Shown here: positions 45,423 to 48,836 of the stretch, piece by piece
How positions within the stretch are numbered: position 1 is the first letter of the stretch
Layout of the letters: the number at the start of each line of letters is the position of its first letter
DNA from: a virus
Reading direction: 5' to 3' (one strand)
Length of the DNA stretch: 64,000 nucleotides
Virus record (IMG/VR): IMGVR_UViG_3300008266_000014
Span: 32,001-96,000 of that record
Notes under the pieces: generated by a model
What the model saw: only the letters and a program-made list of their open reading frames with translations
Databases searched by the model: none
What the model was told of the DNA's origin: nothing
Position numbers and translations under genes: made by a program

Positions 45423-45965
45423 ATGCCAAATTCTTTTTTTATTAGCGACACTCATTTTGGTCACACAGGTGTATGTAAGTTTCTCAGAGATGATGGAACA
45501 AAACTTCGTCCGTGGGATGATCCAGATGAGATGGATCAGGCTATGATCGAGAATTGGAACAAGACTGTCCGACCGAATGATAAGGTGTACCATCTTGGTG
45601 ATGTGGTGATCAATCGAAAATCATTGAAGACACTTGCTCTTCTCAATGGTGATAAGGTTCTGATCAAAGGTAATCATGATATATTTAAACTTAATGAGTA
45701 TACAGAGTTCTTTCGCGATATAAGAGGGTATCATGTTTTAAATGGCATGATCCTTAGTCATATTCCGATCCACGAAGAAAGCATTGCAAGATTTGGTGTT
45801 AACATTCACGGACATTTGCACTACAACCGTGTAAAGAAGAATGGTGAGATTGATCCTCGCTATTTCAACGTGAGTGTAGAGCAGATTAACTATACCCCCA
45901 TTTCAATTGACGAACTGAGACAGAGAGTGATTGAACAGGGTGGACAAGTGAATTTCAGGAGCTAA
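45423..45965 (+). CDS. Calcineurin-like metallophosphoesterase
   Basis: SDTHFGH, YHLGD, KGNHD, HGHLH. Confidence 0.88.
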   Translation: MPNSFFISDTHFGHTGVCKFLRDDGTKLRPWDDPDEMDQAMIENWNKTVRPNDKVYHLGDVVINRKSLKTLALLNGDKVLIKGNHDIFKLNEYTEFFRDIRGYHVLNGMILSHIPIHEESIARFGVNIHGHLHYNRVKKNGEIDPRYFNVSVEQINYTPISIDELRQRVIEQGGQVNFRS

Positions 45966-47029: not shown

Positions 47030-47584
47030 ATGAATATTTTTTTATATGATGATCTCATCGATAGTAATACGGTAGATGAGACAGAGCAGCTTCTATGCGG
47101 TATCTACTTTCCATGGTATTTTCAAAACTCTACCGTGCTACCTCCTGAAGTTTTTGGTATTAGTGGAGGTCCTCTATACGATTTTCAATTCATTCACACA
47201 TTTATTAGGAATGGAGAATTAAACTCTGGTAGTGTGAATCTTCCAATGAAAATTTTTGATATTGTTGCTGAAAGATTGAAACTCAACATACGGCACGTCA
47301 CCAGAATAAAGGCTAATCTTCTCACCACGGGGTTCCCTTCAAGTCAAGATTTAGATCAACAATATCACACCGATCACACGGAAGAAAGCACATATAGTAT
47401 GATTTATTATGTTAATGATTCGGACGGTGATACTGTATTTAAAGACATCAACAACAACGAACAGAGAAGAATAAGTCCGAAAAAAGGAAGAATTGCTTTG
47501 TTTAGATCTAATATTATGCACAGAGCAACCAACCCTACTCACCATAAGCGCAGAGTTGTCATTAATTACATTTTTCAAGTATAA
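47030..47584 (+). CDS. 2OG-Fe(II) oxygenase
   Basis: RIKANL, YHTD, YYVNDSDGDT, HRATNP...RRVVINY. Confidence 0.8.
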   Translation: MNIFLYDDLIDSNTVDETEQLLCGIYFPWYFQNSTVLPPEVFGISGGPLYDFQFIHTFIRNGELNSGSVNLPMKIFDIVAERLKLNIRHVTRIKANLLTTGFPSSQDLDQQYHTDHTEESTYSMIYYVNDSDGDTVFKDINNNEQRRISPKKGRIALFRSNIMHRATNPTHHKRRVVINYIFQV

Positions 47585-47592
47585 TAACCAAT

Positions 47593-47764
47593 CATTTTTG
47601 AGAGTCCTTAAGCGAGGAGCCTAACCAGCGACCTGACTGCCGAGGGAAAACAATACCTCTTTCAATTGCATCTGGAAACCAGATATGTACGTGGTGCGTA
47701 CGCAAGACAATGAGGGGCCAACAAAATTCTGGCTTAAAAGGACATGGCAGTACTCTCAAAAATG
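47593..47764 (+). ncRNA. Candidate structured ncRNA upstream of tRNA-Asn
   Basis: 13-bp terminal stem CATTTTTGAGAGT/ACTCTCAAAAATG, several internal helices and a possible pseudoknot; no credible ORF. Confidence 0.6.
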
Positions 47765-47765
47765 T

Positions 47766-47841
47766 TGACCGGTAGCTCAGTCGGTAGAGCAGGTGACTGT
47801 TAATCACCCTGTCGCTGGTTCGATCCCAGCCCGGTCAGCCA
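47766..47841 (+). tRNA. tRNA-Asn(GTT)
   Basis: TGACCGG/CCGGTCA acceptor, GGTGA-CTGTTAA-TCACC arm, CCA. Confidence 0.95.
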
Positions 47842-48035
47842 TCTTAGATGTGGTGTTATGGAAAATCCCTGTGTACCAGGGCAGTGCACTGTCAATGGGT
47901 CCTCTGTCTAGCTAGCACGGCCAATACAGTTGATATAAACAAAAACACAGGGACGCCTATACAAATAAGTTTATTCGTTAAAAGCAAACAGTAGTAGGTA
48001 TTACTACTCATAACATGGCATCACACCTAAGATGG
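47842..48035 (+). ncRNA. Candidate structured ncRNA downstream of tRNA-Asn
   Basis: About 22-bp imperfect closing stem (47839-60/48014-35) and 9-bp TCCCTGTGT/ACACAGGGA inner stem. Confidence 0.5.
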
Positions 48036-48068
48036 ATATATACTCTTTTAAATATCACAAAGGAAAAA

Positions 48069-48836
48069 ATGAAGCATCTGTTTTTTACCTTTGCATTACT
48101 ATTCTCGGGAAGTAGTTTTGCAGGATCACAATTCGTACTCAACGTATCAAAAAATGAGGTTGTACTAGACTCAAGAGCAGAGGTTGTAAGACCAATTGCA
48201 AGTGTTACAAAATTAATGACAGCACTTGTTGTTATTGATAGTAATCTTGATATGCAGGAAAAGATTCCATATAGAGGATCAAAATCTGTTCCAGGCAAAC
48301 CAAGAACGAGAGAAGAACTCTTATCACTAATGTTAATTAAGAGTGATAATAATGCAGCAGAGTCTCTTGCAAAAAGTCATCCGCTAGGACGATCTGGATT
48401 CATCTATTTGATGAACAAGAAAGCGCAAGACATAGGAATGCAGTTTACTTCATACGAAGACCCTTCTGGTATAGGTATTAACAACCAGAGTACAGCCAAA
48501 GACTTGTCGTTGTTGTTGAAACATACTTCCAACTATTCTAAGATTACAGAGGTTGCATCCTCAACAAATTACACCCTTGTTGAACCTGTTAGCAGCAGAA
48601 AGAAAAAGAAGAAGTCGAAGGGGTATAGAGTGATTAGTGTTAATAACACCAACTTTAGACTTCTTAATGAATATGAAGAAATAAAGATTTCTAAAACTGG
48701 TTTTACTAACCCTGCTGGTAAATGTCTTGCAATGTTCATTAACAAGCACGGTGATAACTTTGCCGTTGTAATCCTTGGTGAGAGGGACATGAGAGCAGTA
48801 GAGAAAGTATCAAGAAACATCATTAATAGTTTATAG
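48069..48836 (+). CDS. Peptidase S11 D-Ala-D-Ala carboxy/endopeptidase (PBP7/PbpG-like) with signal peptide
   Basis: ASVTK (SxxK), SDN, KTG triad; MKHLFFTFALLFSGSSFA signal; AAGGA SD. Confidence 0.88.
   Translation: MKHLFFTFALLFSGSSFAGSQFVLNVSKNEVVLDSRAEVVRPIASVTKLMTALVVIDSNLDMQEKIPYRGSKSVPGKPRTREELLSLMLIKSDNNAAESLAKSHPLGRSGFIYLMNKKAQDIGMQFTSYEDPSGIGINNQSTAKDLSLLLKHTSNYSKITEVASSTNYTLVEPVSSRKKKKKSKGYRVISVNNTNFRLLNEYEEIKISKTGFTNPAGKCLAMFINKHGDNFAVVILGERDMRAVEKVSRNIINSL

Follow-up and report, generated by a model that had tools for sequence, protein, structure and literature searches.

Genomic context and fold of the element

The window, by which we mean the whole 64,000-nt stretch of DNA that was analyzed, belongs to a T4-type phage whose IMG/VR record is 155.5 kb long. 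A gap between a 2OG-Fe(II) oxygenase gene, which ends at position 47584, and an S11 peptidase gene, which starts at position 48069, encloses a 172-nt element followed by a tRNA-Asn gene (Table 1). The element is on the plus strand, as are all genes surrounding it, and the gp46, gp47, and uvsY genes are located upstream. The claim that it is bounded by a perfect 13-bp terminal stem ending just before the tRNA was verified by direct reading of the sequence: positions 47593–47605 and 47752–47764 are perfect reverse complements, and a single base (47765) separates the end of the stem from tRNA-Asn.

The MFE fold of the element has an energy of −53.9 kcal/mol, compared to −38.0 ± 3.6 kcal/mol on average for shuffled sequences (z = −4.43), and none of 200 dinucleotide shuffles folded as well. 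The three hairpins of the original prediction (47670–84, 47687–701, and 47716–34), the TTGC/GCAA pairing (47666–69/47702–05), and the pairing between 47636–42 and 47745–51 are all present in the MFE fold. The structure noted at positions 47593–47764 is confirmed to be real and to exceed chance. Its description as an unannotated structured RNA is appropriate, and no Rfam 15 family matches it.

A σ70-type promoter-like site directly upstream would put the transcription start at ca. 47592–47594, where the terminal stem begins. Promoter-like sites are not enriched in the region overall (11 found vs. 8.7 expected), and the site at 47556–85 is to be read as a consensus match only. A TATAAT box is also found directly upstream of a homologous copy in L229 (lineage G5, see below).

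Other parts of the stretch are matched identically by contigs from DNA runs of three studies labeled as freshwater or lake-water metagenomes. One RNA run shared words with the stretch; its contig lies inside the peptidase gene alone (48165–48429), with none over the element, and such contigs are silent on expression. Contigs coding for an identical oxygenase protein turned out to be near-identical copies of the same phage, from which no variation was gained. Among five near-identical public copies of this phage, L096 carries a T to G change at 47756 that breaks a pair of the terminal stem and is uncompensated. The L097 contig diverges abruptly inside the T-arm of tRNA-Asn, which is probably due to an assembly join between tRNAs.

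Table 1. Positions of the element, its structural parts, and neighboring features (window coordinates unless a locus is named).
Feature	Position	Strand	Remarks
Promoter-like site, σ70 type	47556..47585	+	TTGTCA, 18-nt spacer, TATAAT; 11/12 consensus matches
Whole RNA element, 172 nt	47593..47764	+	Fold z = −4.43; covariance model R1 141.3 bits, E = 3.4e-32; homologues
P1 5′ strand, 13-bp terminal stem	47593..47605	+	With 47752–47764; 11/13 pairs compensated; 96.4% of cells paired
PK1 5′ strand (pseudoknot, crosses P2)	47606..47608	+	With 47739–47741; 95.6% of cells paired in 15 homologues
P1b (47615–17/47632–34) around small hairpin P1a (47619–20/47628–29, loop 47621–27)	47615..47634	+	
Most conserved block, 22 nt	47627..47648	+	Identical between the window and lineage G2; P1a/P1b 3′ half, P2 5′ strand, and junction after it
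P2 5′ strand, 7 bp	47636..47642	+	With 47745–47751; stacked directly on P1, 3′ side
P4, variable inner domain	47656..47715	+	Outer helix 47656–59/47712–15; junction closed by 47666–69/47702–05
P5 hairpin, 5-bp stem, 9-nt loop	47716..47734	+	Followed by conserved U-U-A-A-A junction
PK1 3′ strand	47739..47741	+	Within invariant G-G-A block
P2 3′ strand	47745..47751	+	Pairs counted in alignment A7
P1 3′ strand	47752..47764	+	Last base 1 nt short of tRNA-Asn +1
tRNA-Asn (GTT)	47766..47841	+	ARAGORN; Rfam tRNA 67.2 bits
PF04308 genes near the RNA	L250:7943–8410, L246:3933–4403, L255:14269–14769		

A family of related elements in uncultivated phages

Homologues were searched for with a conserved 17–18-nt block, taken from the most conserved part of the element (47627–47648), and two gapped motifs (a metagenome scan among these searches), and then with covariance model R1. 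A scan of IMG/VR with the 18-nt block matched nine contigs, six of which contained a full look-alike. In total, the family has at least 20 loci (the window and at least 19 others), 151–178 nt in length, that fall into at least seven lineages: W (the window), G2 (L099, L103, L106, L107, L160, L185, and duplicates), G3 (L133 and L191), G4 (L009), G5 (L229), G6 (L240–L243), and G7 (L244). Homologues with compensatory changes, on whose absence the original prediction was to be abandoned, therefore exist. All listed homologues are located in uncultivated phage contigs, on the tRNA strand, within or at the edge of tRNA arrays. Family membership was defined by P1, PK1, P1a/P1b, and P2 in this order, the conserved core block, and a location in a phage tRNA array on the same strand as the tRNAs, all of which are found in the window.

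R1 detected one copy in each of the five positive records and, in addition, a diverged second copy outside its training set; on the reverse strand, the score was 16 bits, vs. 160 or more. The window's own 155.5-kb record has a single copy. A strongly diverged copy (L244:458–624, corresponding to G004:C1:13157–13323; 72.8 bits) follows tRNA-Cys 4.3 kb away from a G6-type copy in the same phage record; part of the otherwise “invariant” block is altered in it, while P2 and P1b are compensated. A freshwater DNA-run contig (depth 14.5) matches positions ca. 47618–47647, with three 1-nt insertions, and then 47740–47768, skipping 92 nt between the two matched stretches. It looks like another relative that shares the ends of the element but not its interior.

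The distribution of the family is patchy. R1 found no element in 15 other whole records, from gp46 relatives or from phages rich in tRNAs; seven of these records have a completeness of at least 90%. The element is absent from the four near-complete closest relatives, and must therefore be dispensable for this kind of phage. Eighty loci of gp46 relatives lacked it in an nhmmer search, blastn against GenBank phages returned no element match, and a motif scan of 50,697 phage records gave zero matches. Among 185,579 prokaryote species genomes, a motif that would miss diverged G7-type copies matched 10 times vs. ca. 11 matches expected by chance according to our own estimate; none of the matches was accompanied by the rest of the element, and one of them, L230, is the 3′ end of a tmRNA. 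A first, exact search with a 3′ pattern produced no match, and loci matched by a tRNA-Asn pattern share the tRNA alone, with the exception of L009. Searches with the flanking oxygenase and S11 peptidase proteins retrieved no relatives from IMG/VR, and among 5.8 billion proteins the homologues of the oxygenase are at most 56% identical locally (at most 41% over most of the length). The carrier phages have genomes of ca. 105–175 kb, as estimated from fragment size and completeness. The proteins they share are only 24–60% identical, and gp46 of one carrier is 24% identical to gp46 of the window.

The conserved pseudoknotted core

To the homologues we applied the covariation analysis that had been proposed as a check of the structure. 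The alignment, A7, was a plain MAFFT alignment of 15 sequences that was not fitted to any structure; five helices with 28 pairs, or 420 cells, were counted. Of these cells, 96.7% are paired, vs. 26.7–39.7% when the partners are slid by one to three columns, compensatory changes are present in 17 of the 28 pairs, and none of 500 shuffles reached the observed paired fraction, the covariation score, or the number of compensated pairs. These counts refer to sequences rather than events; the independent units are the seven lineages, and near-identical members inflate the cell counts.

In P1, 11 of the 13 pairs are compensated (Table 1). P2 is 99% paired, with two of its seven pairs compensated, one G-C to G-U change, and a closing G-U pair in 14 of the 15 sequences. 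Because of this closing G-U pair and the G-C to G-U changes, the RNA strand can be identified as the strand of the tRNAs. Both pairs of P1a are compensated (96.7% of cells paired), as is one of the three pairs of P1b (93.3% of cells paired). Among the three PK1 pairs, two are invariant and one is compensated: the window and G6 have U-A as the third pair, and nine other sequences have G-C. A local hairpin that rivals PK1 (47606–08 with 47615–17) and is preferred by RNAfold has 71% of cells paired and zero covariation. The junction nucleotides are nearly invariant across the family.

A pseudoknot had been proposed in which GTCCTT/AAGGAC and ACTGCCG/TGGCAGT cross each other. Its core, 47606–08/47739–41, stands; the outermost bases, 47604–05, are part of the terminal stem instead, to which we assign them because their stem partners covary. 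The overall P1–P2–pseudoknot arrangement is borne out by the paired cells and the compensatory changes in A7. Judging from these sequence comparisons, the segment between positions 47593 and 47764 is a real, evolutionarily conserved folded RNA with a pseudoknotted core.

The variable interior

Covariation in P4 and P5 was read by eye, without a formal count, since MAFFT registers differ in this part of the alignment. In every lineage, P4 is closed by a pyrimidine-rich strand paired with a purine-rich strand, whose letters change and whose complementarity is kept. One or two inner hairpins are present depending on the lineage; in the window, the P4 junction carries the hairpins 47670–84 and 47687–701. 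The letters of the P5 stem also vary by lineage with complementarity kept, and indels in the loop shift the register. A candidate P3 pairing, between the junction after P2 and the next pyrimidine run, competes with the covarying outer helix of P4.

The 7-nt loop of P1a is complementary to an apical loop of the inner domain in all lineages, with letters that vary by lineage. The match (PK2) is 4 bp long in W, G3, G4, G6, and G7, 6 bp in G2, and 5–7 bp in G5. Statistically, the kissing contact is not significant: the cross-lineage matrix is not diagonal, and loop shuffles give p = 0.02–0.74 per lineage, with a combined p of ca. 0.10. We keep PK2 as a contact that may form.

Comparison with known RNA classes

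The original prediction called for a comparison with Rfam and noted a loose resemblance to RNase P RNA. In the five lineages compared with Rfam 15, the element matched no family, even with thresholds as permissive as E ≤ 5–10. None of the RNase P models (RF00010, RF00011, RF00373, RF00009, RF02357) produced a match at E ≤ 10 in the window region or at E ≤ 5 in four homologue loci. There is some general likeness to RNase P RNA, including its minimal type T: P1 is terminal and stacks on P2, a long-range pairing lies close to the 3′ end, and the RNA is connected with tRNA processing. However, the long-range strand of the element lies 5′ of the P2 strand and crosses P2, a topology that RNase P RNA does not have, and the element has roughly half the length of the smallest RNase P RNA known.

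The letters that had suggested the resemblance are accounted for otherwise. The “ACAAAA..CTGGCTTA” segment, a look-alike of CR-V (ACAGAA..GGCUUA type) at 47721–47737, is made of the loop and 3′ strand of P5 (47716–34), a hairpin whose sequence is different in every lineage; the other lineages have unrelated letters at this place. The GAGAGTCC stretch is no free J3/4–P4 strand, since it pairs both in the terminal stem, which covaries, and in the pseudoknot. CR-I (GAGGAAAGUCC type) is unpaired in J3/4 and then forms P4 nested inside P2; in the element, the similar letters at 47600–47607 pair in P1, which covaries, and in PK1. The likeness to RNase P RNA, having no model match, no conserved CR-V, and a different topology, was therefore dropped. 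In contrast, the suggestion of a new class stands, given the absence of an Rfam match and the homologues with compensatory changes.

Family models of 6S RNA, Y RNA/YrlA, and tmRNA did not match the element either, and the Ro60 gene (TROVE, PF05731) is absent from the window's own 86%-complete record, the control genomes being positive. A 9-nt stretch at the P1/PK1 border is similar to the strand of Y RNAs that binds Ro and to CR-I of RNase P, and serves as a lead only.

The comparison with the stable non-tRNA species of T4 holds for position and fails for homology. T4 species 1 and 2 (rnaC and rnaD) are non-tRNA RNAs of 119–139 nt encoded in the tRNA cluster of a T4-type phage, on the same strand as the tRNAs; rnaD starts 1 nt after tRNA-Arg, and the element likewise adjoins a tRNA. 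T4 rnaC also folds far better than its shuffles (z = −4.6). Yet rnaC carries a tRNA-like T-arm, while in the element ARAGORN and Rfam call no tRNA or tRNA-like structure, and the element differs from both T4 RNAs in having a pseudoknotted core. With filters off, the best R1 match in positions 69000–74000 of the T4 genome had 10.9 bits on a 36-nt hairpin, and the match within rnaC (6.5 bits) covered a 26-nt hairpin alone and not the whole gene, so that nothing scored above 11 bits. A role of T4 species 1 and 2 in the tRNA or translation apparatus has been supposed and, to our knowledge, never demonstrated.

GOLLD and ROOL are ornate, covariation-supported structured RNAs of phages and prophages that are often located near tRNA islands and whose function is unknown (bioRxiv 10.1101/2024.12.08.627333). 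They are three to five times longer than the element (ca. 500–800 nt vs. 151–178 nt) and form RNA-only cages; their Rfam models do not match it. A catalogue by Fremin et al. 2023 (PMC10690425) contains 8,495 unnamed motifs of candidate structured RNAs of DNA viruses predicted from IMG/VR. Its data source and its type of evidence are those used here, and it may already include the family. The text of the paper describes no tRNA-array RNA of this shape.

Location in tRNA arrays and putative biogenesis

The tRNA neighbors of the element differ between lineages. In W, the order is promoter-like site, element, one nucleotide, and tRNA-Asn. The element lies between tRNA-Asn and tRNA-Met in G2, and between tRNA-Tyr and tRNA-Met in G3. 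In G4, it follows tRNA-Leu and is separated by ca. 200 nt from a tRNA-Asn. In G5, tRNA-Ser and tRNA-Arg are followed by ca. 38 nt containing a TATAAT box, the element, and a protein gene. Finally, 5 nt separate the element from a downstream tRNA-Asp in G6, and 11 nt separate it from an upstream tRNA-Cys in G7. Each copy is thus 0–38 nt from a tRNA of the same strand on at least one side. P1 begins with the C-A of the CCA encoded by the upstream tRNA gene in G2, G3, and G4, and in L103 the last base of P1 is the +1 position of tRNA-Met.

We consider it probable that the elements constitute an uncatalogued family of compact, ca. 150–180-nt pseudoknotted ncRNAs that are cotranscribed with phage tRNAs and then excised by the enzymes of tRNA processing. 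How they would be released is deduced from position. The element would be transcribed together with the tRNAs and, in the window, from its own promoter. Release by RNase P, as originally suggested, fits the location: because RNase P cleaves at tRNA +1, a cut at +1 of tRNA-Asn, or of the downstream tRNA in other arrays, would define the 3′ end. Where an upstream tRNA is present, the cut that frees its CCA end would set the 5′ end. This 5′ cut could also be made by RNase P, with P1 serving as an acceptor-like helix; RNase P is known to act on other hairpin substrates. The flush terminal stem would then protect the excised element as a stable RNA. Our guess is that the mature RNA acts in trans via its conserved junction core, by binding a component, protein or RNA, of the tRNA/translation apparatus of the host or the phage.

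Alternative explanations

The fold could instead be a purely cis-acting processing element that spaces, insulates, or orders RNase P and 3′-end processing and has no later role. The distance of 0–11 nt from tRNAs in most lineages and the overlap of P1 with the upstream CCA are consistent with this. However, most tRNAs of the same arrays are 1–10 nt apart and have no such element, the identity of the neighboring tRNA varies by lineage (Asn, Met, Tyr, Leu, Asp, Cys), the G5 copy has a protein gene downstream, and ca. 200 nt precede the next tRNA in G4. Neither the 22-nt invariant junction block nor the pseudoknot would be needed in a spacer, and we find the cis-acting role rather unlikely. Distinctly unlikely, in our view, is a new ribozyme, either self-cleaving, freeing itself or a neighboring tRNA without host enzymes, or acting on tRNAs in trans. 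None of the models of known self-cleaving ribozymes (hammerhead, twister, HDV-like, hatchet, pistol, glmS) matched at E ≤ 10, and host RNase P already accounts for the 3′ end. Moreover, phosphotransfer cleavage leaves a cyclic phosphate, and such a cut at the upstream CCA would make the tRNA unfit for charging. These points outweigh the compact, double-crossing fold, the near-invariant unpaired junction nucleotides, and the position exactly at tRNA boundaries, which speak for a ribozyme. Two copies are placed as a cis-regulatory leader might be: the L229 (G5) copy has its own promoter and lies ca. 20 nt before a ribosome-binding site and an ATG, and the L244 (G7) copy is followed by a possible gene start. 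Still, a tRNA or a long gap comes next in five of the seven lineages, no conserved terminator or SD-sequestering alternative was found, and the conserved region ends with the P1 3′ strand, which makes a riboswitch-like aptamer controlling a downstream gene very unlikely.

Two further explanations are disfavored. A diverged version of a known protein-binding RNA (Y RNA/YrlA or 6S RNA) or a reduced RNase P RNA would have a similar size, a long terminal stem, and the 9-nt look-alike at the P1/PK1 border, itself a lead only. This origin is highly improbable, since these classes have no Rfam match in five lineages at E ≤ 5–10, the 9-nt stretch is paired in covarying P1 and in PK1, the supposed CR-V segment is a variable hairpin, the helix order is unlike that of RNase P RNA, and the 86%-complete record has no TROVE/Ro60 gene. 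The perfect terminal inverted repeats might also be viewed as a DNA-level feature (MITE remnant, origin, or recombination site) or as chance, with no RNA involved. This is barely conceivable: the 155.5-kb record has just one copy, the strand-specific G-U pairs would turn into A-C on the opposite strand, the orientation is always that of the tRNAs, the reverse strand reaches 16 bits vs. 160 or more, and compensatory changes are present in short internal helices.

That tRNA clusters of phages can hold extra stable RNAs has been known for fifty years from T4 species 1 and 2, and more recently from the giant GOLLD and ROOL; we know of no function assigned to any of them. If the elements are, as we prefer, excised ncRNAs, they add a third, unrelated, and much smaller fold to this niche. 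With its size of 150–180 nt and covariation-supported structure, the RNA should be easy to transcribe, probe, crystallize, and pull down, which makes it a practical starting point for asking why phages retain non-tRNA RNAs among their tRNAs. The family deserves an Rfam entry, so that such gaps are no longer annotated as empty. As a more speculative extension, to which we give a small chance, the RNA may represent a new functional class acting on the tRNA pool (a ribozyme or cofactor that processes, repairs, or shields tRNAs, for example against anticodon nucleases) or self-assembling via complementary loops like GOLLD and ROOL. If so, phage tRNA arrays would carry RNA machines besides tRNAs.

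Neighboring genes and other RNAs of the arrays

For partner profiling, the five positive records (and the window's own record for neighborhood clustering) were compared with four near-complete negatives. No gene was common to all carriers. A gene coding for an RNase H-like protein (PF04308) is located 0.4–2.2 kb downstream of the RNA in three carriers, but is also present in two RNA-less relatives; it is a gene of the tRNA region rather than a partner. At 45423–45965, the window has a calcineurin-like metallophosphoesterase gene (Metallophos_2, 23.7 bits, under the 27-bit cutoff, E = 5.5e-5). Homologues with 51–63% identity are found 0.8–4 kb from the RNA in two other carriers and in none of the four near-complete RNA-less relatives, a co-occurrence that may be taken as a weak lead toward RNA end-healing. 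The G5 copy is followed, at a distance of 1.1 kb downstream, by an anti-CBASS Acb1-like gene (L229:12429–12962, minus strand; PF23474, E = 1.4e-19). Genes for tmRNA are present in carriers (L009:5106–5510, L241:11401–11755, and L229:10107–10510; Rfam beta/permuted tmRNA 107 bits, ARAGORN tags ANDEQFALAA and ANDNAFLMAA); ARAGORN also finds one tmRNA in each of the four RNA-less relatives and, beyond the window, one in the record to which the window belongs.

Downstream of tRNA-Asn, positions 47839–48036 contain a second, unrelated conserved RNA, element B (fold z = −4.0). Its homologues (nhmmer, E = 6e-8) are located at L107:342–543 and in L160 and L185, G2-type contigs that carry the first RNA too. 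The sequence of the long terminal stem of element B differs among these homologues, with complementarity kept. In addition, a ca. 230-nt gap between tRNA-Met and tRNA-Asn upstream of the RNA in L099 (7579–7820) and L103 (10394–10627) is conserved between both contigs and folds at ca. −75 to −80 kcal/mol; this G2-type gap may contain a third array-embedded RNA.
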